Positions 37,491 to 55,369 of a stretch of 61,235 nt of DNA are shown here, one piece after another. Positions within the stretch are counted from its first letter, which is position 1, and every line of letters begins with the position of its first letter. The notes beneath the pieces were generated by a model that saw only the letters and a program-made list of their open reading frames with translations, was not told the origin of the DNA and made no database searches. Source of the stretch: Patescibacteria group bacterium (GTDB lineage Bacteria; Patescibacteriota; Minisyncoccia; Phycocordibacterales; UBA1550); the NCBI GenBank assembly GCA_038063615.1, contig JBBTUT010000010.1:12035-73269 (forward strand), in the 5' to 3' direction. The position numbers were made by a program, and so were the translations under genes.

Positions 37491-37512
37491 CATATTTTTT
37501 TGAAAGAACTAA

Positions 37513-37563
37513 TCTGTTTCGTCTTTTCAGACTCATCAGTCGAGATACGCATCTCGATACAGA
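37513..37563 (-). ncRNA. Type III hammerhead ribozyme (HHR-a)
   Basis: minus strand TCTGTA|TCGAGA-tgcgta-TCTCGA CTGATGA GTCT-GAAA-AGAC GAA ACAGA; cleavage after A (complement of 37558). Confidence 0.85.
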
Positions 37564-37686
37564 GAGCATTTTTACGCGTGCTCAGCGCGGATGGTTTTGT
37601 CTCGGTTCATCAACCGGAGGGCTCTGCTTCCCTTGGGCTCCACATTTTATCATCAAGAAAAAGTGGACAAAGACTCTAGGATTTAG
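37564..37686 (-). repeat. Module M (structured domain 5' of the hammerhead), copy a
   Basis: about 125 nt shared with 38921, 40958, 48082, 50510, 49421; helices TTTGTC/GACAAA, TCCAC/GTGGA, AGGG/CCCT, CGGTT/AACCG, GAGCA/TGCTC. Confidence 0.75.
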
Positions 37687-40266: not shown

Positions 40267-40307
40267 CCAACGCATAGCAGGTATCTCCACTAGCACTATA
40301 TTTGTTT

Positions 40308-40850: not shown

Positions 40851-40906
40851 AGTTTCTATTTTTTAATTATCACTTTTTTGAAAATAATTTTCAATGTCTT
40901 TAAAAA

Positions 40907-40957
40907 TCTGTTTCGTCTTTTCAGACTCATCAGCGCAGACACTCATCTGCGGACAGA
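40907..40957 (-). ncRNA. Type III hammerhead ribozyme (HHR-d)
   Basis: minus strand TCTGTC|CGCAGA-tgagtg-TCTGCG CTGATGA GTCT-GAAA-AGAC GAA ACAGA. Confidence 0.85.
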
Positions 40958-41080
40958 GAGCATTTTTACGCGTGCTCAGTGCGGATGATTTTGTCTCGGT
41001 TCATCAACCGGAGGGCTCTGCTTCCCTTTGGCTCCACATTTTATCATCAAGAAAAAGTGGACAAAGACTCTAGGATTTAG
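40958..41080 (-). repeat. Module M, copy d
   Basis: near-identical to copies a and c. Confidence 0.75.
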
Positions 41081-41153
41081 TGTTTGGAATTACTTCATTT
41101 CACGCATCTCCTTAAGGAGCACTCTTTTAAGGCAAAGTGCACGAAGCCGTTTA

Positions 41154-41645: not shown

Positions 41646-41695
41646 TTTCTCCTCCCTTTTCGTTTGAAGTTAACTTGCTTTTCGGTTTTCAAAGA

Positions 41696-41760
41696 TCTCC
41701 TGATTTCGTCCTGCCTTCGCCGGCCTCCTTCCGGTTTTGATTTTTGGACTCGTCAGTTCC
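41696..41760 (-). ncRNA. 5'-truncated hammerhead (HHR-e): core, stem II and stem III 3' strand only
   Basis: minus strand ttggaaCTGACGA GTCC...CCGG-aaggagg-CCGG...GGAC GAA ATCAGGAGA; no stem I hairpin or cleavage-site strand upstream. Confidence 0.55.
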
Positions 41761-41767
41761 AAAAGCG

Positions 41768-41773
41768 ATTATA
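41768..41773 (-). promoter_or_regulatory. -10 box (TATAAT) of a candidate promoter for the 41645-to-40308 unit
   Basis: minus strand ttgtcTATAATcgctttt; predicted start falls just before the truncated hammerhead core. Confidence 0.4.
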
Positions 41774-41965
41774 GACAATTTCTTATAAACTTACCGAGAA
41801 TTACTACTAACTGATTACAAATTAATTTACTCTGTCATAAAAACGGCTTCGTTGAGCCATTTTTATGAGTTCCCCATCAAAAAACTGTTGACGAAAAAAT
41901 TGGACAGCGACTGGAAATATCTTAATTTTCTTGTCTTTTTTTAACTAACCTTTTATAATATAGCT

Positions 41966-43222
41966 ATGATAAAAGAATCATTCCATAATTTAGAAAAAGC
42001 CCAATCGGAGGCGGAAAAAATAAAAGGACTGGTCGGAGAAAAAGGTGAGAGTGAGGACTACGCCACGGCAGAAAAACTTTTAGAAGAAGCTGGCGAAATA
42101 GAGCTGGTGGATTTCGACGCTGAAGAAAGCGGTGGTGTTGAAGCGCAAGTAGAAAAAACGACGCCATCCATCATTCCTGAAAAACAAAAAGCAGAAACAG
42201 TGAAACGAGAGCCAAAACCGTATGCCTACAAAGAAATAGATCGACTCGGAGAGCAACTTTCTAATTTCAAGAAAAATGCGAGGGGCGCGCGTAGCAAAGA
42301 GACTCGAAATGCCAATGAAGAAAAAATTAAATTTTTCAGAGAGGAATTAGAAAAAGCAAAAATAGCCAGAAAGGACATCAATGAGAAGATAGAAAACAGA
42401 AATTCAAAATTTGAAAGATTGCTTAAAGATAAATTTGAAGATCTTAAAGATGGAACATGGGAATCAAGTATACCGGAAATTGATTCTGTTCAGGTCTACA
42501 AAGACAAGCCCAGAGAGGAAGGCAAGGTAGAATCTCTCGGCATAAATGTTTTCTGGGGAAAAGACGGGGAAACACACACTGCGCATTTTAAACTTTTGAA
42601 AGATGGTACATTGGTGGGCAAAATGCCGATAGAAAGAGGATTGAATATCGACAAAGATGAGCTTTTTGACGATGTTTTGCACACTATCGAAACAGTAGAT
42701 ATGTCGTTTTTTGAGAATATTAGCAAGAAGATTTTACGCTCCAAACCATCATCTGATAGGCATCCTCATATCGACGGAGTACATACCCCAACTCCAGAGA
42801 AGCCGGACGAAAAAAGAAAACCAAAAGATCCTAGACGCCTAGAATTTATGGGAAACCATGGAAAGGTTCTTTTTGGCATCACAGAAGAGGGATACAACTT
42901 TAATGGTTATTACGGGTTTGTTTTTCCAAATTTTTTAGTATTGGAAAACGAGAAAATCGGTAATGCCGCCATTTTTATTGATTTTGAAAACCCTATCGAC
43001 ATTGACCCGAAAAGATTTAAATTGCCACCAAAAAGAAGAATGACCAAAGAGGAAAGGATGAAAACTCTGAAAGATAACATAGAAAAATACATAAACCTAG
43101 ATGGAGATCAGCTTGAAAAGATGGGGGCAGAAAGAAAGCCTCATCCGCATATGGATAATGAAAAATGGGAAGAAAAAATGAGGCTACGAATAGACACGAG
43201 ATTGACAAAAATAGAAAATTAG
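41966..43222 (+). CDS. Hypothetical Lys/Glu-rich protein
   Basis: 418-aa ORF; no recognisable motif. Confidence 0.6.
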   Translation: MIKESFHNLEKAQSEAEKIKGLVGEKGESEDYATAEKLLEEAGEIELVDFDAEESGGVEAQVEKTTPSIIPEKQKAETVKREPKPYAYKEIDRLGEQLSNFKKNARGARSKETRNANEEKIKFFREELEKAKIARKDINEKIENRNSKFERLLKDKFEDLKDGTWESSIPEIDSVQVYKDKPREEGKVESLGINVFWGKDGETHTAHFKLLKDGTLVGKMPIERGLNIDKDELFDDVLHTIETVDMSFFENISKKILRSKPSSDRHPHIDGVHTPTPEKPDEKRKPKDPRRLEFMGNHGKVLFGITEEGYNFNGYYGFVFPNFLVLENEKIGNAAIFIDFENPIDIDPKRFKLPPKRRMTKEERMKTLKDNIEKYINLDGDQLEKMGAERKPHPHMDNEKWEEKMRLRIDTRLTKIEN

Positions 43223-43276
43223 TATATCGTACTGGTAGTTGTTTTTTTGTAAATCATCAATCAAAAGGAGGGTTTT

Positions 43277-43504
43277 ATGGAAAAGACGGAATTGATTGCC
43301 TGTCACCGAACAGCAGGAAACGACACAATAACCAGAGAGGTATTTTGTAAGTTGGTGGATGTTTTATTGAAATATGCTCCGGACCATGTACGCAATTTTT
43401 TCAAGGATTTTGCCAATGATCCCGAGACAACCGATGGCGAAATCCAAGAAATAACAGATGTCATGCTCAATAAGCTTAATGAGAACACTATCGCCCAATG
43501 TTAA
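43277..43504 (+). CDS. Hypothetical small protein
   Basis: 75 aa; AAGGAGGG SD; followed by a terminator. Confidence 0.55.
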   Translation: MEKTELIACHRTAGNDTITREVFCKLVDVLLKYAPDHVRNFFKDFANDPETTDGEIQEITDVMLNKLNENTIAQC

Positions 43505-43525
43505 CATTGGGCGATTTTTATTTCG
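43490..43525 (+). terminator. Intrinsic terminator
   Basis: cgcccaatgttaacattgggcg palindrome then atttttattt. Confidence 0.75.
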
Positions 43526-43732
43526 GCTAGCATACTCCAAGAGTCATCCTGCTGGACGAGTACTCTCGTACACAGCGTCCGAGCGACGACGAAATATAGG
43601 TACAATACCGCGCGAGAAAAGCGAGCTCCGACAATACCCCGGGGCTATGCCCCGAGGAACCTTTATTGGCTGGGAAAATTGGATAGTCAAGCTCAAAAAA
43701 GGAAGAATGTGCGCAAGAAAGCAGGCTTCTTT

Positions 43733-43767
43733 AAACAAACAACCCAGCCTCTTGCGAAGCCGGGTTG
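43733..43767 (-). terminator. Intrinsic terminator (3' part of module C, copy b)
   Basis: minus strand CAACCCGGC-ttcgcaagag-GCTGGGTTG then TTTGTTT. Confidence 0.6.
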
Positions 43768-43782
43768 TACAATATTTCAAAA

Positions 43783-43824
43783 TTTTTCAAAAAGAACATA
43801 GGATTGACCTCCATCCCGAGGAGC
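43783..43824 (-). repeat. Module C conserved core, copy b
   Basis: identical core to 37121..37161. Confidence 0.7.
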
Positions 43825-43854
43825 CTTCTGTAGTAAAGACACAAACTGGGGTTT

Positions 43855-44172
43855 CTAGCAGTGATAGACATCACACCATGGATGTCTGCCTTCGCTAGTA
43901 TATGCAAGCTTCTCTTCGTCGCTTGCATATTTCGCGACCCTAATCTCAAAAGCGGAGTAAAAGAACTCTCCGTCAAGGAGACTTGCCTGCCCATTTACTT
44001 CCACTTCTCTTCCCAATAACTCTGAAAGAGGTGGCAGCTCAGCGTCCCCGTATTCTATGGCGAGATATTTGCCAGTTGGATGGCATTTCATCACCACGCT
44101 ATTCAGGTCTTCGCCTATAATTTTTCCTGAACAATTAAAATCAACCCAACCCTTATCTACTTCTTTTTTCAC
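43855..44172 (-). CDS. Hypothetical protein
   Basis: 105 aa; GTG start; no motif. Confidence 0.5.
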   Translation of the reverse strand: MKKEVDKGWVDFNCSGKIIGEDLNSVVMKCHPTGKYLAIEYGDAELPPLSELLGREVEVNGQASLLDGEFFYSAFEIRVAKYASDEEKLAYTSEGRHPWCDVYHC

Positions 44173-44226
44173 CTCTCTACCCCCATTCGTTTAAAGCCCG
44201 TCGGCTATATTTTTTTGAAAGAACAA

Positions 44227-44294
44227 ATCTCTGCAAGATTTCAAATTATCTCTAACTTAAAATCTTGATAAAGATGGCAAGTTTCTGACTTGCC
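44227..44294 (-). repeat. Double-hairpin module H2+H1, copy 1
   Basis: H1 44227..44275 (atctctgcaagattt...aaatcttgataaagat), H2 44276..44294 (ggcaagt-ttctg-acttgcc). Confidence 0.75.
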
Positions 44295-44358
44295 AAAAAG
44301 TTGACCGCTACTTTAAGGAGTGTTCTTTAAGCAAAACACACAAAGCTGTAAGCTTGTT

Positions 44359-44745
44359 TCACTCTGTATTTGATTTTATCCTGACCGAGTATCCCACTAT
44401 AAGTTCCTTAAATGCCGTTACCATTTTTAAGGAATTATTAGCGACATATTCCCAATCATTTCTCTCTGCTATTAAAGCTTTCACAGCATTGGATAGTCCC
44501 CTGTCCAATTGCTGCTGGCGAGTTTTCGCCAGCAATTCACATAGTGGTGGTGCCATATCTTCGTAAAAAGCTAGCGCAGGATGTTTTAGGACTGGTATTA
44601 CAGTTACCAAGAAAAAATCTAGATCCGAGCGATAATTGTGCTTTGGTATCGATATTTTCTTCAATATTTCCTCTGTTCTTGGCAGTACAGACCCTCCAAA
44701 CTCGTACAAAAAGGCACCACAAACTGCTCCTGCTCCTATTCCCAT
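44359..44745 (-). CDS. Hypothetical protein
   Basis: Trimmed to MGIGAGAVCGAF with AAGGAGG SD. Confidence 0.5.
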   Translation of the reverse strand: MGIGAGAVCGAFLYEFGGSVLPRTEEILKKISIPKHNYRSDLDFFLVTVIPVLKHPALAFYEDMAPPLCELLAKTRQQQLDRGLSNAVKALIAERNDWEYVANNSLKMVTAFKELIVGYSVRIKSNTE

Positions 44746-44808
44746 CTTTCTGCCTCCTTTTTTCAAATTCCTCCGCTATAAAAATAGCGAGGTGAACTTA
44801 CTAGCAGA

Positions 44809-44870
44809 AGGATAGCATATCGCCACATATTTGTCAAGCATTTGACAAAATTAAGAATATGATATATATT
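44809..44870. promoter_or_regulatory. Back-to-back divergent promoters sharing a TTGTCAAgcaTTTGACAA palindrome
   Basis: minus strand TTGACA(44837..44832)-17-TATCCT; plus strand TTGACA(44842..44847)-17-TATATT. Confidence 0.6.
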
Positions 44871-44910
44871 GCACTCAGATATGTTAAATTAAATCAATAA
44901 GGAGGGCAGG

Positions 44911-45108
44911 ATGCACGGAAAAAATAAATTTATAGAGCCATTAAGAGAAACGGTTAAGCGAATCATTGCGGAGCGAAACCATGGGCTAGGATGCATATGC
45001 GATGATTGCCTGATATTTGAGCTTTTAGGTGCTCAAGACGCCAAAGAGCAAACTCCAGGATCGTTTTTGTTGGAACGCAAAGCGGACAACAATACACCGC
45101 TTAATTAA
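44911..45108 (+). CDS. Hypothetical small protein
   Basis: 65 aa; AAGGAGGG SD. Confidence 0.5.
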   Translation: MHGKNKFIEPLRETVKRIIAERNHGLGCICDDCLIFELLGAQDAKEQTPGSFLLERKADNNTPLN

Positions 45109-45974
45109 AGAAAGTGCGGCAAAGAATGTTTCCAGAATCGAGAGGCCTGCTTAAGGCCTCTTTTTTTTATTTCATCTTCCTTTTGTTTTAAAATATCCTG
45201 TATTATGTTGAGTGCTTTTTCAAGTTTTTGAGGAGCGAGAGAATGTTGTGGCTTATTATTTCGAATAAGTTCCTCATTGAGCCTTTTGACAAATAAAAGT
45301 TGGTCTTGAAAATTCTGAACAATTTCCTCGAGGAACCCAAATTGTAATGGATGTGTCGCCTTATCAATGCTTTTATCGGCGATATTCTTGCAAAGCTCCT
45401 CAAGTTGATCTTTCTTTATTTGAACAATTGCACGAGGAATATTTTCTATTGCACCCTTGGTTTTGCTTATTTCAGAATAATAATATTTCAGATCCGTAAG
45501 TTTTCCATCAGATAGTCTCGTTCTTAATGATCTGTATTTATCTTCAAGAACCCCTTGATCTTCTGAAATAGTCAAGTCGATGGCTATTCTCTCAAACGAA
45601 TCATCTTCTTGTGAAATTTCCAATACGAAATCACTACCTCTTTTTATATCATCAAATTCGCTGGTCAAAATGACATTTGTTTCATAGCCAAGCCAACACG
45701 ACCGCTCCCCTTCCTCATAAAAAATCCCCGCCGCAATCAACGCACGCCCATGTTGCTCCCTAAATTTCGGATCTTTTTTAATTCTCTCAATCTCCCTTTT
45801 ATCTTTTTCAATTTCCTCTTTTGAATACAAACCTTCAAAATCCTCCATTTTTGGAGCTTCGACTTTCAGTACGCCATCGACATATTTTTCCATCGCTTTG
45901 TCCTCCGCCATTGTTAACGGAGGTTCTTTGGCTAAAAATTTATTCTCAAAAGCAACATCAGGTCTCATATTCAT
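45105..45974 (-). CDS. Hypothetical protein
   Basis: 289-aa acidic, helical ORF; own promoter (TTGGCA-15-tgaTATACT at 46069..46043). Confidence 0.6.
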   Translation of the reverse strand: MNMRPDVAFENKFLAKEPPLTMAEDKAMEKYVDGVLKVEAPKMEDFEGLYSKEEIEKDKREIERIKKDPKFREQHGRALIAAGIFYEEGERSCWLGYETNVILTSEFDDIKRGSDFVLEISQEDDSFERIAIDLTISEDQGVLEDKYRSLRTRLSDGKLTDLKYYYSEISKTKGAIENIPRAIVQIKKDQLEELCKNIADKSIDKATHPLQFGFLEEIVQNFQDQLLFVKRLNEELIRNNKPQHSLAPQKLEKALNIIQDILKQKEDEIKKRGLKQASRFWKHSLPHFL

Positions 45975-46089
45975 ATAATTAATTTAGTTTAAATGTTCGA
46001 CACTATGCTATCTAAAATCTCATAATCCACACTAGTACTTTCAGTATATCATTTTTGCTGTTGTGCCAAAACTTGCTATGACCCGAGCC

Positions 46090-46122
46090 AAATAAAAAAA
46101 ACGGCACTTTTGAAAAGTGCCG
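46090..46122 (-). terminator. Strong intrinsic terminator ending the long 52.6-to-46.1 kb unit
   Basis: minus strand GGCACTTTT-caa-AAGTGCC then GTTTTTTTTATTT. Confidence 0.8.
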
Positions 46123-46137
46123 CCTCGCAATTGGCTT

Positions 46138-46773
46138 CTATTCTATTTCCACCAATGCTTTTTCGGCAGTATAGCGCTGGATGCCGAGTTCTTTGCGCAT
46201 CTTGCGTATTATGCCGACCGGCTTATCTACGCAATCAGCGATCACGGTATCTGGCATGCGCCCTAGGAATGATTGGATCTTATCTTTCCAACCATCCACA
46301 CCCTCTTCGTGCGGATACGCAATGCCATTTTGTTTGAAAGCGTTTTTGATGCTCCCAAAATGGACGATTGCGGAATGATAGACCGCTGGATGCTTCTTGA
46401 GAAGCTCCTTCGGGCTAAACCCCTCTTTGCCCTTCATCTGGTCCAAGGTCTGTATCGCGCAGTAGAATTTCATCTCTGCGTGACCTATACCGTTCCGGCT
46501 TCTCGCCATTAGGTACGACACGAACCTTGACCCGCATTTCGGGCATCGCGTGGTGTAGTCCCGCGGGTCCTGATTGAACCCGCGAATGATCTCCGCCGGT
46601 GTCAGCGCGCGACCGCATTTCGGGCAATCACCCTTTGGCTTGTATTCTTCGCCACGGAGCTCTTGAATGAGCCCGAGTTTGAGAGCGATTTTATGCTCCG
46701 CCAAAAGCTGTGTTTCCAACACCGTTCGGTGCGTACTCCTGAAGTGGTGCCCTACCCTCAATGTCAATCCCAT
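46138..46773 (-). CDS. Zinc-ribbon protein
   Basis: 211 aa from ATG 46773; CPKCG...CPKCG. Confidence 0.65.
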   Translation of the reverse strand: MGLTLRVGHHFRSTHRTVLETQLLAEHKIALKLGLIQELRGEEYKPKGDCPKCGRALTPAEIIRGFNQDPRDYTTRCPKCGSRFVSYLMARSRNGIGHAEMKFYCAIQTLDQMKGKEGFSPKELLKKHPAVYHSAIVHFGSIKNAFKQNGIAYPHEEGVDGWKDKIQSFLGRMPDTVIADCVDKPVGIIRKMRKELGIQRYTAEKALVEIE

Positions 46774-46925
46774 CACCTCACCTCCTTTTTAATTTGTTTT
46801 TCCCGTTTTCTGCTATACCCCACCAAGCCTTTCTTGCTCGAATGGGCGCCACCACCATGATGACGAAGCTTAAAACAAACTGCCTCCGGAAGTCTCCTCC
46901 CGACTTTCAATCCAACCTTTTTCAT
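46773..46925 (-). CDS. Small basic protein, translationally coupled
   Basis: 50 aa; GGAGGTGGGAGA SD-ATG; stop overlaps the next ATG as TGATG; below the ORF-track size cut-off. Confidence 0.4.
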   Translation of the reverse strand: MKKVGLKVGRRLPEAVCFKLRHHGGGAHSSKKGLVGYSRKREKQIKKEVR

Positions 46926-46967
46926 TCTCCCACCTCCGCTATTTTTTTGGGACTCTTTTTCAAATCC

Positions 46968-47026
46968 CTTTTAGAAATTTCAAAACAAATTTAAAATTTC
47001 TAAAAGAAAGGCAAGTCTTGCTTGCC
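46968..47026 (-). repeat. Double-hairpin module H2+H1, copy 7 (divergent stem sequence)
   Basis: H1 cttttagaaattt-caaaacaaattta-aaatttctaaaag (13 bp perfect); H2 ggcaag-tcttg-cttgcc. Confidence 0.65.
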
Positions 47027-47035
47027 ACATAGCAG

Positions 47036-47209
47036 TTATTTTACATCGTACTCTGCTATTTTATGCTGATAGTCCGGAGATGGACCCCCGGTGCGATCCA
47101 GAGCATCTTGCACGGATTGTTCCGCCTTCTCACGGGAAGAGTACACTTCTACTATCATCCACCCACACCCCATGCAGTTCATCTGCCTTATAAAAACTTT
47201 TTCTACCAT
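47036..47209 (-). CDS. Hypothetical small protein
   Basis: 57 aa from MVEKVFIRQ; GGAGGTG SD. Confidence 0.5.
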   Translation of the reverse strand: MVEKVFIRQMNCMGCGWMIVEVYSSREKAEQSVQDALDRTGGPSPDYQHKIAEYDVK

Positions 47210-47228
47210 ATGCACCTCCACAAACTCA

Positions 47229-47267
47229 AACCCACCTGCCGATTTCTCGGTTCAGGACTTACGGGTC
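47229..47267 (-). promoter_or_regulatory. 5' UTR stem-loop U1, copy b
   Basis: aacccacctgccgatttctcggttcaggacttacgggtc. Confidence 0.7.
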
Positions 47268-47286
47268 GTATTTTTGAAAGAACAAA

Positions 47287-47350
47287 ATCTCTACAGAAGC
47301 ACAACTTGTGTTATGTTTCTGATAAAGACGAGGAGCGGTATTTGCTCCTC
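47287..47350 (-). repeat. Double-hairpin module H2+H1, copy 6 (covarying stem)
   Basis: H1 atctctacagaagc...atgtttctgataaagac; H2 gaggagc-ggtattt-gctcctc. Confidence 0.65.
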
Positions 47351-47357
47351 AAGAAGT

Positions 47358-47633
47358 TCACAGAAAAAATCTTTTGTGAACCCAGCTTGCCGCCAGAACC
47401 ATTGAGACAAGCCAAAGACATGGCCCCATTATGCCCAGTATCATGAACAAAATCATGAAAACAGCCAGCCCAATAAAAGGCAATGGGAAGCCAATCCTGA
47501 AAAAGAACTCATGCCATTCAGGATCATAAAATACCATGAACGGCATACCAAAGAGGTATTTTACTGCCCTCCATCCCAAAAACACGACGGCTACAAATAC
47601 TAAAATACTTAGTAGATTCGTCATCCTCTTCAT
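47358..47633 (-). CDS. Small membrane protein (3 TM)
   Basis: 91 aa from MKRMTNLLSILVF; GGAGGTGG SD. Confidence 0.6.
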   Translation of the reverse strand: MKRMTNLLSILVFVAVVFLGWRAVKYLFGMPFMVFYDPEWHEFFFRIGFPLPFIGLAVFMILFMILGIMGPCLWLVSMVLAASWVHKRFFL

Positions 47634-48030
47634 TCTTCCACCTCCATGCGTTTCCAGTCCGCCGACCATAATTTTGGGATTCTCTTTCAAATCCCTTTCA
47701 AAAAATTCAAGTTGTTAAAATCTTTGAAAGGGAGAGGATGCGATATTTTGCATCCTCTCTGTGCAGTGTCATCTTATATCGCGTAAGATGACTTGGTTGA
47801 GACCCTCGCCTGTGACGATAGATTTTCTGATAGCTAGTCAGAATAATCACACAAGCAACCGGTACGGTCTCACCCATAGGTTTTTTTTGTGAGGTCTAAC
47901 GACCTCATTGAGTTTCCTATAACTCTCTCCGTGACGTACTTTGGGGCTGCACACCCTCCCTGTACCACAACATCTTCCAAAAAAATCATTTCAAAAAGAT
48001 GTTGTGGCGCAGGGAATTTTTAAAAGAACA

Positions 48031-48081
48031 TCTGTTTCGTCTTTTCAGACTCATCAGTCGAGATACACATCTCGAAACAGA
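48031..48081 (-). ncRNA. Type III hammerhead ribozyme (HHR-f)
   Basis: minus strand TCTGTT|TCGAGA-tgtgta-TCTCGA CTGATGA GTCT-GAAA-AGAC GAA ACAGA. Confidence 0.85.
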
Positions 48082-48300
48082 GAGCATTTTTACGCATGCT
48101 CAGTGCGGATGATATTCATTATCGGCGTTGAACTTACCGTGACAAACGCTCAAGTTTGTCAGGCAATAGGTTATTCTCATCAGCTTACCCTATTGCCACC
48201 AATTTTTACCGGACTGGCGCCGTGTCTATGATTTTGTCTCGGTTCATCAACCGGAAGGTTCTGCTCCCTTTAGGCTCTCCATTTTTTAAAACGGGGACAA
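48082..48300 (-). repeat. Module M, copy f, carrying a ~117-nt insertion (48114..48230)
   Basis: flanks match the other copies with compensatory AAGG/CCTT for AGGG/CCCT; the insert holds GGCAATAGG/CCTATTGCC and TGACAAAC/GTTTGTCA hairpins. Confidence 0.7.
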
Positions 48301-48316
48301 ATCAAACTAAGCGTCG

Positions 48317-48979
48317 TTAGTTGCCTAGCTTTTTCTCCCCAAGGAGTTTGGCAAGTATGTCTGCCCAGTCCTTCCCGTGCTGCGAGTAGGCGGTTCCAGT
48401 CCCATTGCAACGGTAGCACCCGTAGGTACCATCCTTGCCGGAGCCGGAACACTTCGCGCAGGTGCCTTGGGTCCCCTCAATACCAACCATGCCAACATAG
48501 TTAGTAAAGAGTGCCTTCGCGTTATGGAGCACGAAAATGGTGTTGTTCATCGCATCGAGCATCGCGCTCGCTGGATGATCGTGATGACCCATGTCGGTCA
48601 CCACCGCAACATACTTCGCGCCGCGAAGTGCCGCAGTGATGGCGAGTGCCCATCCAACAGACATTTCCTTCCCCACATGCTTGAGCCCCTCACCACCTTG
48701 AGTGGCCCGACCTGCTGGCATCAAGAGATCGCAGAGTACGACATCCCAATACGGAAGCCACGACTCTGCCTCAGCCTTCTTGTGTGCCGGCCATGACTCT
48801 ATCCCCTGACTCATGTACTCGGATTTAAGGGTCTTATACTTCTCATTATCCAGCTGTGGTTCAAGAAGCTCGAGCGCTTCGTCATGACTCCCCACAACCG
48901 TAAGGTCATGTAAAGCCCCAAGAACCTGCTGAGCTGAATTCTGGTGGTTTGCGCTGTCGTCGATTACTAATATTTTCAT
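48317..48979 (-). CDS. Receiver-like domain fused to CxxCxGxG zinc fingers
   Basis: 220 aa; MKILVIDDS... REC-like N-terminus; C-terminal CAKCSGSGKDGTYGCYRCNGTG. Confidence 0.7.
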   Translation of the reverse strand: MKILVIDDSANHQNSAQQVLGALHDLTVVGSHDEALELLEPQLDNEKYKTLKSEYMSQGIESWPAHKKAEAESWLPYWDVVLCDLLMPAGRATQGGEGLKHVGKEMSVGWALAITAALRGAKYVAVVTDMGHHDHPASAMLDAMNNTIFVLHNAKALFTNYVGMVGIEGTQGTCAKCSGSGKDGTYGCYRCNGTGTAYSQHGKDWADILAKLLGEKKLGN

Positions 48980-49057
48980 ATTAATCTCCTACCCCTGAAC
49001 CCGAGGTGCAGCTTGCGAAGAATTCGCATTTTTATTTATTTTATTTAAAAGAACAAA

Positions 49058-49122
49058 ATCTCTACAAGATTTCAAACACTCTGTTTAAAATCTTGATAAA
49101 GATGGCAAGTTTCTAACTTGCC
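49058..49122 (-). repeat. Double-hairpin module H2+H1, copy 2
   Basis: H1 49058..49103, H2 49104..49122. Confidence 0.75.
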
Positions 49123-49195
49123 AAAGGTTGACCTCCACCGTAGGAGTGTTCTTTAAGCAAAACACACAAAGCTCTTTTATCCACCTATTTTATTT

Positions 49196-49384
49196 TTATA
49201 TTTCCTCTCCTCCTAAAAACTTCCGCCCGTTACCGTCTGTCGTAATATCACCGATTGGATCTAGACTGAAGCCATTAAGCCTATCGAGAGAAGCTTGGCT
49301 CGCCACTGCTCCTTTTACTGCGAGAATGGCAAAAAATTTCTCGATATCCTCCACTTCTTCAACCTGCTCTTTTTTCTCGTTCAC
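49196..49384 (-). CDS. Hypothetical small acidic protein
   Basis: 62 aa from GTG 49384 with AAAGGAGGTG SD; the track ORF extends in frame into module M, taken as fortuitous. Confidence 0.45.
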   Translation of the reverse strand: MNEKKEQVEEVEDIEKFFAILAVKGAVASQASLDRLNGFSLDPIGDITTDGNGRKFLGGEEI

Positions 49385-49420
49385 TATCTTTCTCACCTCC
49401 TTTTTGTTTTTAACGGTCCC

Positions 49421-49512
49421 GACATTTTGTCTCGGTGTGTCAACCGGAGGGCTCTGCTTCCCTTTGGCTCCACATTTTATCATCAAGAAAAATGTGGATA
49501 AAAACTCTAGAC
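49421..49512 (-). repeat. Module M, copy h (subtype 2, no hammerhead attached)
   Basis: matches 50528..50626; CGGT-tgacac-ACCG replaces CGGTT-gatg-AACCG. Confidence 0.7.
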
Positions 49513-49527
49513 TATATTGATTACTTT

Positions 49528-50037
49528 CTACACAGGAGACATGTGTTTGAGAATATTCCTAGTTTTCTCTGAATAAACTTCTTTCTCAATGAATGTATTC
49601 ATCTTGTCCCTAGAGAAACGATCAATTTTAATCTTTTTTCTCAAATCAAAACTTGTCTCATTGTCTTCTAAGAAAACAAACTCTACTGCAAACCCATTGT
49701 TCTCCATCTCTGTGGCAAGATCCAGAGCGAACTCTTCCGCTTTGTTTTTTAATTCCCGCCAGTCTTCCTTGGTTGCTTCAGAATTCTCTTTTTCAGAAGC
49801 AAATATCCACCCGTCAGACACATTTACTTTAGCAAAACCAGAATGCTCTTTGCGTGAATTTTCCCTATATTTATAAGGGCCCCACGAAAATAATCCTTCT
49901 GCGCTAATTGTAACTATGTAAGCTGGGTAATATTTCCAATAACGATTTGCATCCCAATGCCAATCTCCGTGCGTACCCAAATAACCCTGAACTGTTTTTA
50001 CCACCGAAACCAGAACTTTCTTTACTCCATCCACCAT
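49528..50037 (-). CDS. Hypothetical protein
   Basis: 169 aa; GAGGAGGGGGAG SD; no motif. Confidence 0.6.
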   Translation of the reverse strand: MVDGVKKVLVSVVKTVQGYLGTHGDWHWDANRYWKYYPAYIVTISAEGLFSWGPYKYRENSRKEHSGFAKVNVSDGWIFASEKENSEATKEDWRELKNKAEEFALDLATEMENNGFAVEFVFLEDNETSFDLRKKIKIDRFSRDKMNTFIEKEVYSEKTRNILKHMSPV

Positions 50038-50088
50038 TTCTCCCCCTCCTCGTTTCGAGCCCGTCGGCTATTTTTTTGAAAGAACAAA

Positions 50089-50157
50089 TCTCTACAAGAT
50101 TTCAAACACTCTGTTTAAAATCTTGATAAAGATGAGGAGCGATGCTGCCGCTCCTCA
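50089..50157 (-). repeat. Double-hairpin module H2+H1, copy 3
   Basis: H1 50089..50134, H2 gaggagcg-atgctgc-cgctcctc. Confidence 0.75.
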
Positions 50158-50458
50158 AAGACAGATGGGAACAAGGTCCCTTTTTAATAATTTGTTTTGT
50201 CGGCGTCCCAACAAACACAAATTATCGTCAAGCATTCTGTCAAAATGCTTTCGCTGAGTTGATGCCTTCTATGGCATCTAAAGGTCTCATCAGCTTAACC
50301 TTACAACGATGGATTTCGTCAGCACCCATCCCTAATACTGGTGTCTCCTACTCCTTGCAGTAGGGATCACCTGCCAAATTTTTCCGCGACTGGACATTTG
50401 TCGCAACCTTAATCGCCTTTTAATTCAAGGGGTAAGGGACGGATTGTTGAAAGAACTT
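50158..50458 (-). ncRNA. About 300-nt hairpin-rich non-coding spacer
   Basis: no credible minus-strand ORF (the 73-aa plus-strand track ORF 50142..50363 is judged spurious); 19-bp GATAATTTGTGTTTGTTGG/CCGACAAAACAAATTATT helix, AAGCATT/AATGCTT and GATGCC/GGCATC hairpins, loop GGTtaagctgatgagACC. Confidence 0.45.
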
Positions 50459-50509
50459 TCTGTTTCGTCTTTTCAGACTCATCAGCGCAGATACGCATCT
50501 GCGGACAGA
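50459..50509 (-). ncRNA. Type III hammerhead ribozyme (HHR-g)
   Basis: minus strand TCTGTC|CGCAGA-tgcgta-TCTGCG CTGATGA GTCT-GAAA-AGAC GAA ACAGA. Confidence 0.85.
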
Positions 50510-50626
50510 GAGAACGCGGTTTTTGTCGCGGTCTCGACATTTTGTCTCGGTGTGTCAACCGGAGGGCTCTGCTTCCCTTGGGCTCCACATTTTATCATCA
50601 AGAAAAAGTGGACAAAAACTCTAGGA
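50510..50626 (-). repeat. Module M, copy g (subtype 2)
   Basis: hairpin next to the ribozyme replaced by GAGACCGCG/CGCGTTCTC; the rest matches the family. Confidence 0.7.
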
Positions 50627-50642
50627 TAGGTAGACGGGCGGC

Positions 50643-50879
50643 TTATTCCCAGCCAGACTGGAGAGGTCCGATGCGGCGCCGAGCTTTACCCTTTTCGCCC
50701 CTTAGAAGGATATAAATTCCTCCCTCGGGAGCAAGGATAAGTTGCGCCCCCTTCAGCTCCTCGTTGTGCCCCTCACTACGCCTCTCTCTAAGCTCCTTGT
50801 ATTGCCGAGCGGTGAGAGATACGCTTGAGCCGTCTTTCCCCTGAACCAAAACCTTGTCCCTGATGATTACTCTTTTCAT
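50643..50879 (-). CDS. Hypothetical small protein
   Basis: 78 aa from MKRVIIRDK; TAGGAGG SD. Confidence 0.55.
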   Translation of the reverse strand: MKRVIIRDKVLVQGKDGSSVSLTARQYKELRERRSEGHNEELKGAQLILAPEGGIYILLRGEKGKARRRIGPLQSGWE

Positions 50880-50899
50880 ACATCCTCCTAAAATTTCAG

Positions 50900-50937
50900 A
50901 ACCCACCTGCCGATTGCTCGGTTCAGGATTTACGGTT
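50900..50937 (-). promoter_or_regulatory. 5' UTR stem-loop U1, copy c
   Basis: aacccacctgccgattgctcggttcaggatttacggtt. Confidence 0.7.
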
Positions 50938-50958
50938 CATATTTTTTGAAAGAACAAA

Positions 50959-51025
50959 ATCTCTACAAGATTTCAAACACTTTGTTTAAAATCTTGATAA
51001 AGATGGGGAGCAGGTTTTGCTCCCC
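50959..51025 (-). repeat. Double-hairpin module H2+H1, copy 4
   Basis: H1 50959..51004, H2 ggggagca-ggtttt-gctcccc; followed to 51058 by a shared ccaatataattgcaaca.ccgtttcggctgagaattt segment. Confidence 0.75.
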
Positions 51026-51235
51026 AATATAATTGCAACAACCGTTTCGGCTGAGAATTTTTGAATGGGCGTTGTTTTCCTCGAGATATCAACGACCGCC
51101 CCCCCCCTTCACTTTCTCGATAAGCTAGCGCTTTTATTTTGTATCGGGAAGCGAATCCTCCGATATCAGCGGTTTCTGTTGCCATGCAATCCGCTCCCTG
51201 CCCCGTCTCCATTAAGGTGCAGTTTCCCCTAATTT

Positions 51236-51547
51236 CTATGTTTCTTTAGTATCTTCTGAAAAATGACCGCTTTCACTCTTTATGACATAAGTGAAGGTTT
51301 TGCCATTATCAGAAATACCTTTCGGAAACATCCTCCCGCGGATAAAAGTCTCGTCAAGAACTTTTCGGGGTGAGTTTTTGCCGTTAAGGACATATATAGT
51401 ATCATGCCCCGAGCCTCCGCTAGAGTTTTGTATGCCAATGACAGCAATGTCTGCGTCTTTGGCAATATACAAATCTGTGCTTGACCGGCTACTCCGAAGT
51501 CCTTCACGAACTTTTTCCGCGTGTTTTTGGAAGTCCTTACTTGCCAT
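51236..51547 (-). CDS. Hypothetical protein
   Basis: 103 aa; GAAGGAGG SD. Confidence 0.55.
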   Translation of the reverse strand: MASKDFQKHAEKVREGLRSSRSSTDLYIAKDADIAVIGIQNSSGGSGHDTIYVLNGKNSPRKVLDETFIRGRMFPKGISDNGKTFTYVIKSESGHFSEDTKET

Positions 51548-51625
51548 ATTTTTACCTCCTTCGTGTTTGAATCTGAATGAACACGGTCATTCACCGTTTG
51601 GGGTTATCCCTATGCAGTCCTTGCG

Positions 51626-51922
51626 TTAGCTGGCTTTTGCCACAGCCGGTCTTTTGTCACCCTTGCGGACGACTTTGACCTGCCGGGCAAAAGCCTCAAG
51701 GAACGGCTTCAATCTGCCGATCTCTGCATTGCGCTTGGCGACCTCGTTCAGAGACGCCCCGAGCTCATACATCGGTATGAACTTTTTCTGAGCGCGCGCC
51801 TCCTTCCCGAGGTTGTATCGGCAAGACCCGCAGATGGGCTTGACCACCCATTCACCCTTTTCCTTTTTCAAGGGAAGAGCAAACTGTGGTTTCTCCCCGC
51901 CACAAACTGTACATGTATGCAT
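51626..51922 (-). CDS. Small zinc-ribbon protein
   Basis: 98 aa from MHTCTVCGG...ICGSCRYN; first gene after the long leader. Confidence 0.6.
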   Translation of the reverse strand: MHTCTVCGGEKPQFALPLKKEKGEWVVKPICGSCRYNLGKEARAQKKFIPMYELGASLNEVAKRNAEIGRLKPFLEAFARQVKVVRKGDKRPAVAKAS

Positions 51923-51942
51923 AATAACCTCCATAATTTCAG

Positions 51943-51980
51943 AACCCCCCTGCCGATTTCTCGGTTCAGGATTTACGGTT
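51943..51980 (-). promoter_or_regulatory. 5' UTR stem-loop U1, copy d
   Basis: aacccccctgccgatttctcggttcaggatttacggtt. Confidence 0.7.
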
Positions 51981-52003
51981 CATATTTTTTTTGAAAGAAC
52001 TAA

Positions 52004-52072
52004 ATCTCTACAAGATTTCAAATTATTTCTAACTTAAAATCTTGATAAAGATGAGGAGCGGTTTTGCTCCCC
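52004..52072 (-). repeat. Double-hairpin module H2+H1, copy 5
   Basis: H1 52004..52052 (long-loop subtype as in copy 1), H2 52053..52072. Confidence 0.75.
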
Positions 52073-52578
52073 AATATAATTGCAACAGCCGTTTCGGCTG
52101 AGAATTTTCGCGTACATTTGGCATGGGCACTAACTCGTATCAATCTACCGTCTGGGGATCAACCAGATCGGTGATTGCTTACTTGCTAGTGTTTCTGTTC
52201 ACCATGCCGTTCTCTTTTTGCCAATCCACCCCGCTAAGAGTGTTGGCGCCCAGAGTCAGGACCAATAGATGCAAGGTAGGGCATCTATTACATTTCCTTA
52301 TTAAGACCTATTTTCTCGTCTCTTAATAAGGATTTCCGTCTTTCACGCCCCATGAGGACGAGGAACAGGTTGGGCTATAGCGAGCCCTCAAAACAGATTT
52401 GAATGTGCAACTTCAATCTCACGCAAACGCGAGGGACTTTGGGGCGAGAGTTTCGCCTGAAACTCCCCCGTATTGCGTGAGATCGTTAGGTTTCTTTCAA
52501 GGCACTGTTCGAGTCGCGGCCAATGTAAATAATTAAATGCCGGCTGTGGAATGTGTCACTCGCTATCAACTTAACTTT
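52073..52578 (-). ncRNA. Long structured leader RNA downstream of the 52.6-kb promoter
   Basis: no credible minus-strand ORF (the 67-aa plus-strand track ORF 52123..52326 is judged spurious); perfect hairpins CCTTATTAAGA/TCTTAATAAGG, AATAGATGC/GCATCTATT, ATCTCACGCAA/TTGCGTGAGAT, GGCATGG/CCATGCC. Confidence 0.5.
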
Positions 52579-52586
52579 CTGAGGGT

Positions 52587-52614
52587 ATTATAGCAAACCT
52601 GCAGGATTTGTCAA
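52587..52614 (-). promoter_or_regulatory. Consensus sigma-70 promoter driving the 52.6-to-46.1 kb unit
   Basis: minus strand TTGACA(52614..52609)-16 nt-TATAAT(52592..52587). Confidence 0.7.
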
Positions 52615-52761
52615 GCACTTCTGACATTTCATCTCCATCTCGTACTCAAATATGTTGTAAAATAAGGGTTTTTGCCGTTTCTTATTGTTATTTAGTTTGT
52701 ACAAAATGGCACTATGCGAACACAAAAAACAATAGTGTCAAAGTATTCTTGTTAATGGTGC

Positions 52762-52790
52762 TTGACAAAAGGAAAGCAATTTGCTACACT
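52762..52790 (+). promoter_or_regulatory. Sigma-70 promoter of a candidate plus-strand sRNA
   Basis: TTGACA-17 nt-TACACT. Confidence 0.6.
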
Positions 52791-52796
52791 CATGTT

Positions 52797-53108
52797 AGAA
52801 AGGTTTGGATTGTCCAAATCTAGGGCTTCTAAAAAGGAGGTGACCCATGCACGGATAACTCTCCACCAAAAGGTTCTCGACAAGAGATTCTTTTGATGGA
52901 GGGTTCTCTGCAAGCAATGGTAAGCCGAATGGACAGAATACCCAAAAAAGAAAGGAGGTGGGACAGATGTGGGGTTAGAGAATGAAAAAAAGCAATTTTT
53001 TTTGCGGTAGGTAAAGTTGGCGCTTTGCAAGTTAGCATAGCTAACACGAAAGCGCCGAAGTAGGTAGCGCCGAGTCGGGGATATTCTATTCCCCGGCTTT
53101 TTTTTGTT
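52797..53108 (+). ncRNA. Candidate ~300-nt sRNA with two perfect SD sequences followed by 3-codon mini-ORFs
   Basis: AAAAAGGAGGTGaccc-ATG CAC GGA TAA (52847..52858); AAAGGAGGTGggacag-ATG TGG GGT TAG (52967..52978); ends at GTCGGGGA-tattcta-TCCCCGGC + T8, which overlaps the 3' end of the convergent TrmB-like gene. Confidence 0.45.
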
Positions 53109-53865
53109 CTTTTTGTGCCTGAGCCCCTATTTTTGCGAGCTTTATTAAAGTTTTGAGAGTATCCGCGACATCTCGGCTTTGGATGAAGATGCTGGAAATA
53201 CGCTTGCCGAGCGTTACAAACTGAACACGGTCTTCATATACGGAAAGGTCACATTTGATAGGAAAATCTTTTGCGTCGACGCGAGTTCGGTCACTCAAGC
53301 TATCACTTGGCAATTCTTGTTTTGAATAATTGTAAACTGAAACAGCTTTGATCTTTCGCGCGGGACGATCTTTTGCAATGGTCTCTATTTCTCTTTGCGA
53401 AAAAGCTTCTTCTATCAGGTCGCGGTTGAACGCAAAATACCCCGTGTCTTCTTTGGATTCGTTCCCGGACGGAAAGAATGCGAGACTATCATGAAATGCC
53501 GCCTCTTTGCCATCAAAATATTTAAGGACCGGTCGTTCCCCTAGCTCTCGTTGAACACTCTTCATTTGCGGAATGATGTCTTTGAGGCGCTTCGCCGTCT
53601 CTCCGAGGATAAGCTGCTGCCTCTCCACAAAAGTCTCCAACCTCTCCGGCGGCTCCGCCGCATAATGCGTCTTCTTCCCAATCTCAACCTCTGAAACCAA
53701 TCCTTTTTTCGCAAGTGTTTCAAGCACAACATACACCGTAGGGCGTTTGATCTTTGTCTTCTCGGCAATGTCCACAACAGAAGCAGAGTCCACCTGCAAA
53801 AGCGCCAAATACACCCCCGCCTCCTTTTCATTCAACCCGATCTCTTGGAGATATTTTTCAAGCAT
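53086..53865 (-). CDS. TrmB-family transcriptional regulator
   Basis: 259 aa; MLEKYLQEIGLNEKEAGVYLALLQ... wHTH. Confidence 0.8.
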   Translation of the reverse strand: MLEKYLQEIGLNEKEAGVYLALLQVDSASVVDIAEKTKIKRPTVYVVLETLAKKGLVSEVEIGKKTHYAAEPPERLETFVERQQLILGETAKRLKDIIPQMKSVQRELGERPVLKYFDGKEAAFHDSLAFFPSGNESKEDTGYFAFNRDLIEEAFSQREIETIAKDRPARKIKAVSVYNYSKQELPSDSLSDRTRVDAKDFPIKCDLSVYEDRVQFVTLGKRISSIFIQSRDVADTLKTLIKLAKIGAQAQKEQKKAGE

Positions 53866-53872
53866 AAAATTA

Positions 53873-54694
53873 TTATTTTAATTTCTTCATTGTCGGATTA
53901 TTTGAAAGTGATTTCATTTGAGTTATTGCTATCGCATTTAGTCTCAGAAGTCTCTCTTTTTGCTCCAAACCTTGGCGGATAAATTCTGCGTTTAACGATT
54001 CGAGGTTTGCCAAGCACACGAGCTGTGTCACATCCGCATAGTCACGCATATTCCCCTCTTTGTTTTTATTTTTTGACTTCCAGTCTTGTGCGGCTATGCC
54101 AAACAAAGCCATATTCAAAACATCCGCCTCGTTTGCATATACAATCGTGGCGTCTTTAACAGACAATTTTTGTGGCAATACGATATTTTCTTTTATGGAA
54201 TCCGTATGGATTTTATAATTGATTTTGGTGAGCATCCGCTTTGCATCCCAGCCCAAAATAAGCCTCTCGTTTTCCTCTACTTTGAGCCTCTGGAATTCTT
54301 TGATCAAATACAACTTAAACTCCGGAGATATCCATGTGGCAAATTCAAAAGCAATATCTTTATGTGCAAAAGTTCCTCCCCCGTAGCGCCCTGATTTATT
54401 TATCATTCCAACAGCCCCCACTGCCTCAATCCACCTCTTTGGCGTAAGGGAAAAGCTGTTGGAGCCGGCTTTGTTTTTAAACCCATCGAATTCGATGGGT
54501 TTAAAATTTTGGTTGTTTATCTTCTCCCAAATGCCCAAAAATTCAACGGTGTCCATCGTACGCATCCAGTTTTGGATGATATAATCGGTCCTTTCACTGT
54601 CTTTATATTTTGCAATATCAGTCAACGAAATATAATCATTTTCGTTCCGCTGAAATGTATATATTTGTAACCCCCGTGCATTTATTTTTTTCAT
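53873..54694 (-). CDS. KilA-N domain-containing protein
   Basis: 273 aa; N-terminal pattern ([11 protein letters not shown]..., [29 protein letters not shown]) typical of KilA-N. Confidence 0.7.
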
Positions 54695-54766
54695 AAGATA
54701 TTTTATAAGTATGCTTGTATTGTATCACGCGCTTGCATCTCGACAAAGGTATGGTACAGTAGCCGT

Positions 54767-55363: not shown

Positions 55364-55369
55364 AGCGCA

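Follow-up and report, generated by a model that had tools for sequence, protein, structure and literature searches.

A covarying two-hairpin RNA element exchanges with hammerhead ribozymes in small-gene arrays of Patescibacteria

What separates the small genes of a long polycistronic transcript where a self-cleaving ribozyme does not? The question is raised by 61,235 nucleotides of the chromosome of a bacterium of the Patescibacteria, or candidate phyla radiation (CPR) (GenBank assembly GCA_038063615.1, contig JBBTUT010000010.1, positions 12,035 to 73,269; hereafter, the window). Some spacers of its minus-strand small-gene arrays carry type III hammerhead ribozymes, and others carry a module of two hairpins, H2 followed by H1. 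In our best reading, the sense-strand RNA element H2+H1 punctuates long polycistronic small-gene transcripts in CPR bacteria and is a protein-dependent counterpart of the hammerhead.

Two abutting hairpins in eight spacers of the window

A first-pass annotation, made from the sequence alone, had marked seven H2+H1 copies on the minus strand. Reading the sequence confirmed each of them in its place, and an eighth copy, at 47685-47759 on the same strand, had been overlooked. The modules are listed here with scores from covariance model R2, introduced below (E-values are rough because calibration was shortened), and with minimum free energies (MFE) in kcal/mol.

44213..44296, minus strand: module with H2 at 44276-44294 and H1 at 44227-44275, then the GUUCUUUC junction; 77.8 bits, E 1.3e-12; MFE -27.8 for the sense strand (z -6.9) versus -18.9 antisense
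46957..47028, minus strand: module of subtype B, H2 at 47010-47026 and H1 at 46968-47006, then the small hairpin GGGAUUUGAAAAAGAGUCCC; 53.4 bits, E 1.5e-7; MFE -23.4, z -5.7
47273..47352, minus strand: module with H2 at 47330-47350 and H1 at 47287-47329, inner stem CAGAA.../...UUCUG; 71.2 bits, E 3e-11; MFE -29.8, z -7.3
47685..47759, minus strand: the eighth module, of subtype B like that at 46957..47028, H2 at 47732-47759 and H1 at 47695-47730; 27.5 bits, E 0.03; MFE -28.0, z -8.9
49044..49124, minus strand: module with H2 at 49104-49122 and H1 at 49058-49103, directly upstream of the response-regulator-like gene at 48317-48979; 86.7 bits, E 1.9e-14; MFE -30.5, z -9.1
50074..50158, minus strand: module with H2 at 50134-50157 and H1 at 50088-50133; 79.3 bits; MFE -35.5, z -7.8
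50945..51027, minus strand: module with H2 at 51005-51026 and H1 at 50959-51004; 86.5 bits; MFE -36.2, z -9.1
51990..52074, minus strand: module with H2 at 52053-52073 and H1 at 52004-52052, the first past the array promoter; 78.6 bits; MFE -32.9 sense versus -16.7 antisense

A repeat, D18, pairs the eighth copy (47685-47759) with the related 46968 copy (46945-46983 in the repeat).

The H2 stems quoted in the first pass (GGCAAGT/ACTTGCC, GAGGAGCG/CGCTCCTC, and GGGGAGCA/TGCTCCCC) and its H1 stems (CAAGATTT/AAATCTTG in five copies, CAGAA/TTCTG in one, and CTTTTAGAAATTT/AAATTTCTAAAAG in one) are correct, but its description of H1 as a stem of 13-15 bp with a loop of 13-18 nt had to be abandoned. 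The flanks AUCUUUA/UAGAGAU pair, and the former loop pairs as AAACA/UGUUU or AAGUUA/UAAUUU, with covariation of its own. H1 is therefore a nearly continuous, AU-rich hairpin of 16-22 bp, with one bulged U and an apical loop of 3-5 nt, that abuts H2 without a linker. Folded in isolation, each copy gave two abutting hairpins. The MFEs lay between -23 and -36 kcal/mol, the z-scores between -5.6 and -9.1, and for each window copy none of 200 dinucleotide shuffles folded as well. The sense fold was stabler than the antisense fold in all eight. The conserved H1 base plus junction pattern matched six times in the window (0.00 expected), and the 19-mer ATCTTTATCAAGATTTTAA, which spans the H2/H1 boundary, occurred five times (0.05 expected). 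That one junction follows every copy is true only in part: GUUCUUUCAAAAA is exact in five copies and appears as the variant GUUCUUUUAAAUA in the 49058 copy, and the 46968 and 47695 copies have GGGAUUUGAAA(A)AGAGUCCC in its place.

A covarying family that exchanges with hammerheads

We searched 722 kb, consisting of the window and 63 CPR loci (numbered with the prefix L) anchored on the family of the 48317-48979 protein, with covariance models R1 and then R2, accepting matches with E up to 0.1. R2 found 57 copies, all 57 on the strand of the anchor gene and thus in sense orientation; its matches in the window were exactly the eight copies. The earlier claim of covariation is fully supported and far exceeds what recent duplication would leave. 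First, in the model-set alignment of 56 distinct sequences, 93.4% of cells pair, compared to 67% after shuffling and 40-56% with partners slid, and double (compensatory) changes occur at 23 of 26 pairs. Second, in A4, a sequence-only MAFFT alignment of 15 copies, 93.3% pair, compared to 77% shuffled and 37-51% slid, and RNAalifold on A4 again gives the two helices, in which compensatory changes occur at 14 of 21 pairs. The single-sequence folds and A4 are independent of the model, to which alignments A6 and A7 were fitted. Third, close relatives (Logan and JGI contigs, 65-68% protein identity) hold many modules that keep the H1 base AUCUU(U)A...(U)AGAGAU and the junction, and their inner H1 helices (for example, CAGAGUCAUCAU/AUGGUGGCUCUG, UUUGAGAAUCUGAC/GUCGGAUUUUCAAA, and UUUGAGAACCUGACC/GGUCGGGUACUCAAA) and H2 stems (for example, CCCAAGC, GGCGAGC, and CCCGAG) are wholly different yet still pair. 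Finally, protein-anchored genome and metagenome loci at 59% identity or less gave few regular-expression matches to the hammerhead core and sparse matches to the GUUCUUU junction, and many of them still carry diverged H2+H1 copies under model search.

Across the family, H2 usually reads uuGGCRAG...CUYGCC and contains one A-U pair that never varies (55 of 55 sequences), and the H1 base reads YCUYU/AGRGA. Beyond a bulge or small asymmetric internal loop, H1 continues as an inner helix, variable and 10-14 bp long, in which U·G pairs are frequent; a U·G and an A-U pair are conserved inside H1, and UG stands at two positions in 34 and 29 sequences. Of the 57 copies, 55 have an H1 of 15-22 bp; its loop has 3-5 nt and its GC content is 37% (52% for H2). 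In distant members, an asymmetric internal loop separates a lower stem from an upper one. H2 starts no more than ~30 nt past the upstream stop codon in most copies. On the 3' side of H1 come (G)UUCUUU-N-AAAA, a Shine-Dalgarno (SD) sequence, and a start codon, the last two mostly 30-80 nt past H1. In L050, the motif lies on both sides of the response-regulator-like gene, with 5-12 nt to spare.

No Rfam 15 family matched any H2+H1 copy (E up to 5 in the window region and up to 1 in five loci holding 12 copies). In the viral database IMG/VR, a type-A pattern scan gave five loci, all representing one chance match in coding sequence, and the pattern GGCRAG...CUYGCCUCUCU gave seven, none confirmed by the model. 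Our search of the literature found no paper linking hammerheads or such a motif to CPR/Patescibacteria. Thus, neither Rfam nor the searchable literature describes this family of double hairpins, how it is spread among CPR bacteria, or that it exchanges one for one with hammerheads; the intercistronic processing or stability hairpin is an already known kind of element.

The hammerheads with which the family exchanges were called by Rfam model RF00008.

50457..50511, minus strand: type III hammerhead, 49.9 bits, above the gathering score; followed by junction GUUCUUUCAACAA
48029..48083, minus strand: type III hammerhead, 44.7 bits, E 4e-7; hairpin GAGCAUGCGUAAAAAUGCUC before it (48101-48082) and GUUCUUUUAAAAA after it
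40905..40959, minus strand: type III hammerhead, 46.8 bits
38868..38922, minus strand: type III hammerhead, 41.0 bits, with core variant CUGAUGUG in place of CUGAUGAG
37511..37565, minus strand: type III hammerhead, 43.6 bits; followed by exact GUUCUUUCAAAAA (37497-37509) and a U1 element

Because its catalytic core has CUGAUGUG and not CUGAUGAG, the 38868-38922 hammerhead may be inactive. With cmscan (E up to 5), hammerheads were found solely at 37511, 38868, 40905, 48029, and 50457, with none at any H2+H1 copy, and the H2+H1 sequences have no CUGAUGA...GAAA core motif.

Both modules occupy one slot, as the first-pass annotation had proposed. The GUUCUUUCAAAAA junction follows hammerheads (37497, 48017, and 50444) and H2+H1 modules (44212, 47271, 49042, 50073, 50943, and 51988) alike, and repeats of the 5' untranslated region (UTR) follow either module: D6 (U1) stands after the 37511 hammerhead (copy at 37448-37515) and after three H2+H1 copies, D7 (U2) after a hammerhead-like element (copy at 38450-38488) and likewise three H2+H1 copies. 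The 3' strands of both modules have AGAUU-N-GUUCUUUC in common. A hairpin also abuts stem III of the hammerhead, as GAGCAUGCGUAAAAAUGCUC|UCUGUC in the window, GAGUAUU..AAUACUC|UUUGUC in L010, and CACGUUAUC..GAUAACGUG|GUAGUC in L035 and L037. Given this common frame of hairpin, element, and junction, H2 corresponds to the hairpin of the hammerhead module and H1 to the ribozyme proper. Orthologous positions show the exchange directly. Upstream of the response-regulator-like gene stands H2+H1 in the window, L073, L074, L076, L013/L014, and L050 and a hammerhead-like element (CUGAUGA...GAAAC) in L075; downstream of the same gene stands a hammerhead in the window, L010, L035, and L037 and H2+H1 in L076, L045, L050, L061, L048, and L058. 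Likewise, the D1 element is followed by hairpin and hammerhead in the window and by H2+H1 in L073.

D1 is an 88-nt repeated non-coding element (a GUCCAC...GUGGA hairpin plus GCCC..GGGAAGCAGAGCCCUCCGGUUGAUGAACCGAGACAAAA) located after stop codons and upstream of hammerheads or H2+H1. Rfam gave no match for it, and it seems to be a further conserved, structured RNA.

37595-37682, minus strand: D1 copy
38952-39039, minus strand: D1 copy
40989-41076, minus strand: D1 copy
48232-48319, minus strand: D1 copy
49425-49512, minus strand: D1 copy
50540-50627, minus strand: D1 copy
L073, 898-949: further D1 copy

Two hammerhead-like elements at 38500-38560 and 41688-41762, minus strand, have the form CUGACGAG-UCC...long insert...GGA-CGAAAUCAG, with a GAUCUUUGAAAA junction after it; the Rfam model Hammerhead_1 scores only 18 bits at 41688-41762, and both may be type III hammerheads whose stem II is enlarged. 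Further segments containing CUGAUGAG, at ~50225-50300 and ~48150-48200 on the minus strand (GCUGAUGAGACC...CGAAAGC and GCUGAUGAGAAUAACC), might be additional divergent hammerheads; Rfam did not call them. Ends of Logan contigs inside hammerheads or H1, considered as RNA ends, were judged to be assembly breaks at repeats.

How the element may act

Three roles had been suggested for H2+H1 in the first pass; the site for a double-strand-specific RNase fits best, and the attenuator or terminator and the ribozyme are disfavored. We tentatively prefer to read H2+H1 as an enzyme-dependent mark for mRNA processing and stabilization, in which, most likely, a double-strand-specific RNase cuts H1 and H2 remains as a protective 3' hairpin. 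One strong promoter would drive transcription of an array through all of its spacers, and the spacer RNA would fold into GC-rich H2 stacked on the 16-22 bp AU-rich duplex of H1. A host double-strand-specific endonuclease, most likely RNase III, would then cut inside H1. H2 would stay at the new 3' end of the upstream mRNA and block 3' exonucleases, mirroring the hairpin left 6 nt from the hammerhead cut, and the downstream mRNA would begin at the conserved (G)UUCUUU and A-rich junction, followed by the 5'-UTR stem-loop and SD. We favor an RNase site because a long AU-rich duplex stands beside a GC-rich hairpin between co-transcribed genes and is interchangeable with a self-cleaving ribozyme. 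RNase III sites comprise about two helical turns of duplex, or two stems of ~10 bp around an internal loop, and H1, with 15-22 bp in 55 of 57 copies and stacked on H2, has this anatomy.

Several points weigh against this reading. The window encodes RNase Y (55589-57121), a cutter of single-stranded AU-rich RNA beside structures, and the junction could be its target instead. Sequence is also conserved in parts of the two helices (GGCRAG/CUYGCC in H2, YCUYU/AGRGA at the base of H1, and U·G and A-U inside H1), a feature that classical RNase III sites do not require and that may point to a specific binding protein or to common ancestry of mobile cassettes. Moreover, the covariation counts on A6 and A7 come from model-fitted alignments.

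The strongest competitor, which we consider unlikely on balance, takes up the first of these points: H2+H1 would remain uncut, RNase Y would cleave the junction just downstream, and the stacked hairpins would shield the upstream mRNA and insulate the folding and translation of neighboring cistrons. RNase Y is at hand in the window (55589-57121), and throughout the family the junction immediately 3' of H1 is conserved, single-stranded, and AU-rich, with the identical junction 3' of hammerheads as well. Two stable hairpins straight after a stop codon are a classical exonuclease barrier, as in repetitive extragenic palindromic (REP) sequences and intercistronic stabilizers. One hairpin is enough for a barrier, however, and hammerhead modules have just one; a passive stabilizer also leaves unexplained why the length of H1 is maintained at about two helical turns while its sequence varies, and why H1 takes the place of the ribozyme proper instead of adding to it.

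The conservation of helix sequence bears on an improbable alternative, in which H2+H1 is the site for a specific RNA-binding protein, be it a dedicated endonuclease or a regulator of translation, or else a processive antitermination factor of the type that acts at lambda nut or HK022 put. The put site of HK022 consists of two adjacent stem-loops. Helix nucleotides of H2+H1 are conserved across genomes whose anchor proteins are only 40-60% identical, among them the A-U pair of H2 in 55 of 55 sequences, the GGCRAG/CUYGCC motif, and the YCUYU/AGRGA base of H1, and the spacing between the two U·G positions is about one helical turn. True array terminators are also conserved in sequence (the CUUCGCAAGAAG loop), so the helix conservation may merely reflect common cassette ancestry, and no candidate protein is consistently encoded beside the arrays; the TrmB-like and KilA-N neighbors in the window belong to DNA-binding families.

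Could H2 and the U-rich 5' arm of H1 instead form a partial intrinsic terminator or attenuator that grades expression along the array? H2 is a GC-rich stem followed by a pyrimidine-rich tract, and all window H2 hairpins pass a loose terminator scan, with tails of TCTTTATCAA or TTTCTTTT in which five of eight nucleotides are U. Family-wide, however, 52 of 57 copies have only 3-5 U in the 8 nt past H2 and a longest U-run of at most 3, compared to runs of 5-8 in the real array-end terminators of the same loci, which occur separately, and the H2 hairpins of the compact locus L061 were not scored as terminators at all. Termination would not explain why the supposed U-tract covaries with the 3' arm of H1. 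Nor do the modules lie at ends of transcription units: a same-strand SD and start codon mostly follow 30-80 nt downstream, and in compact relatives the genes 30-80 nt past H1 have no promoter and no room for one. The window modules contain a single weak 9/12 sigma-70-like match, and the idea of a promoter inside the module was rejected, as there is no conserved -35/-10 and the TTGAGA-17-TTTCAT of one L061 copy is not general. We regard this role as quite doubtful. The promoter and canonical terminators of the arrays lie elsewhere.

52587..52614, minus strand: consensus sigma-70 promoter, TTGACA-16-TATAAT with TG, a 12/12 match, heading the array with most modules
46098..46126, minus strand: canonical intrinsic terminator, a 13-bp stem then U8, at the end of the 52.6-46.1 kb array
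43739-43768, minus strand: further canonical array-end terminator, from the terminator scan
37077-37106, minus strand: further canonical array-end terminator, from the terminator scan

The U-runs of 5-8 noted above are those of the terminators that close the arrays at 46098-46126, 43739-43768, and 37077-37106. Separately, array-end terminators (43739-43768 and 37077-37106; L073 ~4985-5015; intergenic in L074, L075, and L076) have a common conserved apex, CCCG(G)CUUCGC(A/G)AGA(A/G)G(U/G)C(U/G)GGG followed by a U-run, and the two window terminators among them are preceded by a repeated element (37112-37166 and 43775-43829) containing GUUCUUUUUGAAAA.

That H2+H1 is itself a new class of self-cleaving ribozyme is very unlikely. 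Its genomic slot is identical to that of hammerheads, its structure is strongly conserved, and association with hammerheads led to the discovery of twister-sister, pistol, and hatchet. These three classes are mentioned in PMC5737381. Twister, twister-sister, pistol, hatchet, hepatitis delta virus (HDV)-like, hairpin, and the other self-cleaving classes of Rfam gave no match (E up to 5 in the window region and up to 1 in the five loci with 12 copies). Known small ribozymes need a conserved unpaired core, but H2+H1 consists of two nearly perfect helices in which only a linker of 0-1 nt, a bulge or internal loop of 1-5 nt, and two apical loops are unpaired, and every unpaired position varies in sequence. 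In a by-eye comparison, the bulge and loop pattern did not fit a K-turn, domains V/VI of group II introns, or the loops of the hairpin ribozyme.

We give hardly any credence to action at the DNA level, as a palindrome like REPs or miniature inverted-repeat transposable elements (MITEs), a site like integron attC, or an operator for TrmB-like regulators. In its favor, the module is a palindromic repeat of the intergenic, mosaic spacers, both arrays have TrmB-like genes at their flanks, and like attC the module follows each cassette ORF (open reading frame) in a single orientation. Against it, all 57 copies are on the sense strand, many G·U pairs would turn into A·C mismatches in a cruciform or the opposite strand, each of the eight window copies folds less stably in antisense, the free variation of the inner stem misfits an operator, and there is no nearby promoter to regulate. 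No RYYYAAC/GTTRRRY boxes were seen in an attC test, the H1 base being AUCUUUA/UAGAGAU or YCUCU/AGGAGA, and no integrase, REP-associated tyrosine transposase (RAYT), or other transposase was found among the scanned ORFs, the array neighbors being TrmB-like, KilA-N, ClpP, and RNase Y.

Genomic setting, implications, and known systems

Pfam searches of window proteins identified EF-G, EF-Tu, ComEC, RecJ, PilB/PilC (type IV pilus), trigger factor, ClpP, and RNase Y, and the same DNA occurs on a contig from Hainich groundwater well H41. A phage origin was considered and rejected, as 40000-56000 matched none of 50,697 phage records by megablast. The minus strand from ~37.0 to 52.6 kb carries arrays of small genes, mostly of no known function and many with CxxC or DnaJ-type zinc fingers, and the array spacers are mosaics of repeated modules. 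At 53086-53865 on the minus strand, 39481-40266 on the plus strand, and 53873-54694 on the minus strand, TrmB-like winged-helix regulators flank both small-gene arrays and a KilA-N protein adjoins one; a TrmB-like gene also heads the array in L011. In the anchor protein (48317-48979, minus strand), of 220 amino acids, a receiver domain was matched weakly and the C-terminal region is of the CxxC zinc-finger kind. CPR genomes and metagenomes encode at least 288 homologues of it (E up to 0.001), without function-specific annotation and some auto-labelled 'CheY-like chemotaxis protein'; homologues come from Parcubacteria-type CPR (Wolfebacteria, Moranbacteria, Falkowbacteria, Uhrbacteria, and Doudnabacteria), and H132-H133-x-H135-P136 and D84-L85-L86-M87-P88 are invariant in the close ones.

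Outside the arrays, near-perfect palindromes with stems of 24-34 bp lie at 13036-13099, 19772-19829, 17714-17793, 21892-21948, and 22730-22786; two pairs are related in sequence (D14 and D16), and some resemble bidirectional terminators. Short tandem 7-nt repeats of the TTCNATA-, GTTGTTA-, and ACTTTTG-types recur across several intergenic regions.

1112-1142, 7760-7818, and 24893-24923: 7-nt tandem repeat sites
25458-25497 and 59979-60046: 7-nt tandem repeat sites
22792-22830 and 25943-25997: 7-nt tandem repeat sites

Stretches of 200-500 nt without convincing ORFs lie on the minus strand between a promoter, gene end, or hammerhead and the next H2+H1, at 52075-52590, 51028-51235, 50159-50456, and 47760-48028. 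The first has 72% identity over ~130 nt with the start of L073, and the last two have a hammerhead on the 5' side and H2+H1 on the 3' side. If cut at both ends, 50159-50456 and 47760-48028 could be released as discrete RNAs.

The role of bacterial and phage hammerheads has long been inferred from position alone, and a non-catalytic covarying module that swaps with them in an otherwise identical frame amounts to a natural experiment. If a host RNase cuts H2+H1, this would support the idea that hammerheads split polycistronic mRNAs into stable single-gene units and would show ribozyme and protein-dependent solutions to be interchangeable. The family also adds an undescribed, widespread structured RNA to the CPR/Patescibacteria, whose RNA biology is almost unknown, and its covariance-model seed can be used for searching all CPR genomes. 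More speculatively, and with little expectation that it will hold, H2+H1 might be the site of a dedicated CPR endoribonuclease or itself a minimal self-cleaving RNA, and the arrays might be 'punctuated operons' that freely exchange ribozyme and non-ribozyme cleavage cassettes and release some of the 200-500 nt non-coding stretches as discrete RNAs.

How does H2+H1 compare with known elements? Like intrinsic terminators, it has a GC-rich hairpin followed by a pyrimidine-rich tract, but its U-tract is poor family-wide, it lies inside operons, and its 'tail' is an arm of a second conserved helix. REP and intercistronic stabilizers, such as that of E. coli malE-malF, are stem-loops just after a stop codon in operons that protect upstream mRNA and allow differential expression. 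H2+H1 is like them in placing stable stem-loops just past the stop codon within operons; REPs, however, are found in either orientation and serve RAYT transposases as substrates at the DNA level, whereas H2+H1 is strictly sense and rich in G·U pairs. The RNase III sites of the phage T7 early region (R0.3-R1.3) and of early mRNA of the B. subtilis phage SP82 are intercistronic hairpins in long polycistronic transcripts, with about two helical turns of duplex that often form a lower stem, internal loop, and upper stem. Their cleavage leaves a hairpin at the 3' end of the upstream mRNA, and the SP82 sites resemble one another in sequence. Distant H2+H1 members, with their lower stem, asymmetric internal loop, and upper stem, are like the T7 sites. 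Unlike in T7 and SP82, a separate GC-rich H2 is fused to the duplex without a linker, sequence conservation of the helix bases extends over many genomes, the module belongs to a CPR bacterium and not to a phage, and cutting by RNase III is our inference. Clustered hammerheads flanking single prophage genes have been read as cutting long transcripts to gene-length mRNAs (Perreault et al., 2011; PMC3088659). H2+H1 is like these in having one element per intergenic spacer of co-oriented small-gene arrays and in its frame of upstream hairpin, element, junction, and 5' UTR, and differs from them in having no CUGAUGA...GAAA core, no three-way junction, and no sign of a catalytic core. By analogy, the mechanism that we propose, in which an RNase would cut H1 and H2 would stay behind, matches both the processing of T7 and SP82 early mRNAs and the processing role suggested for clustered hammerheads (PMC3088659).

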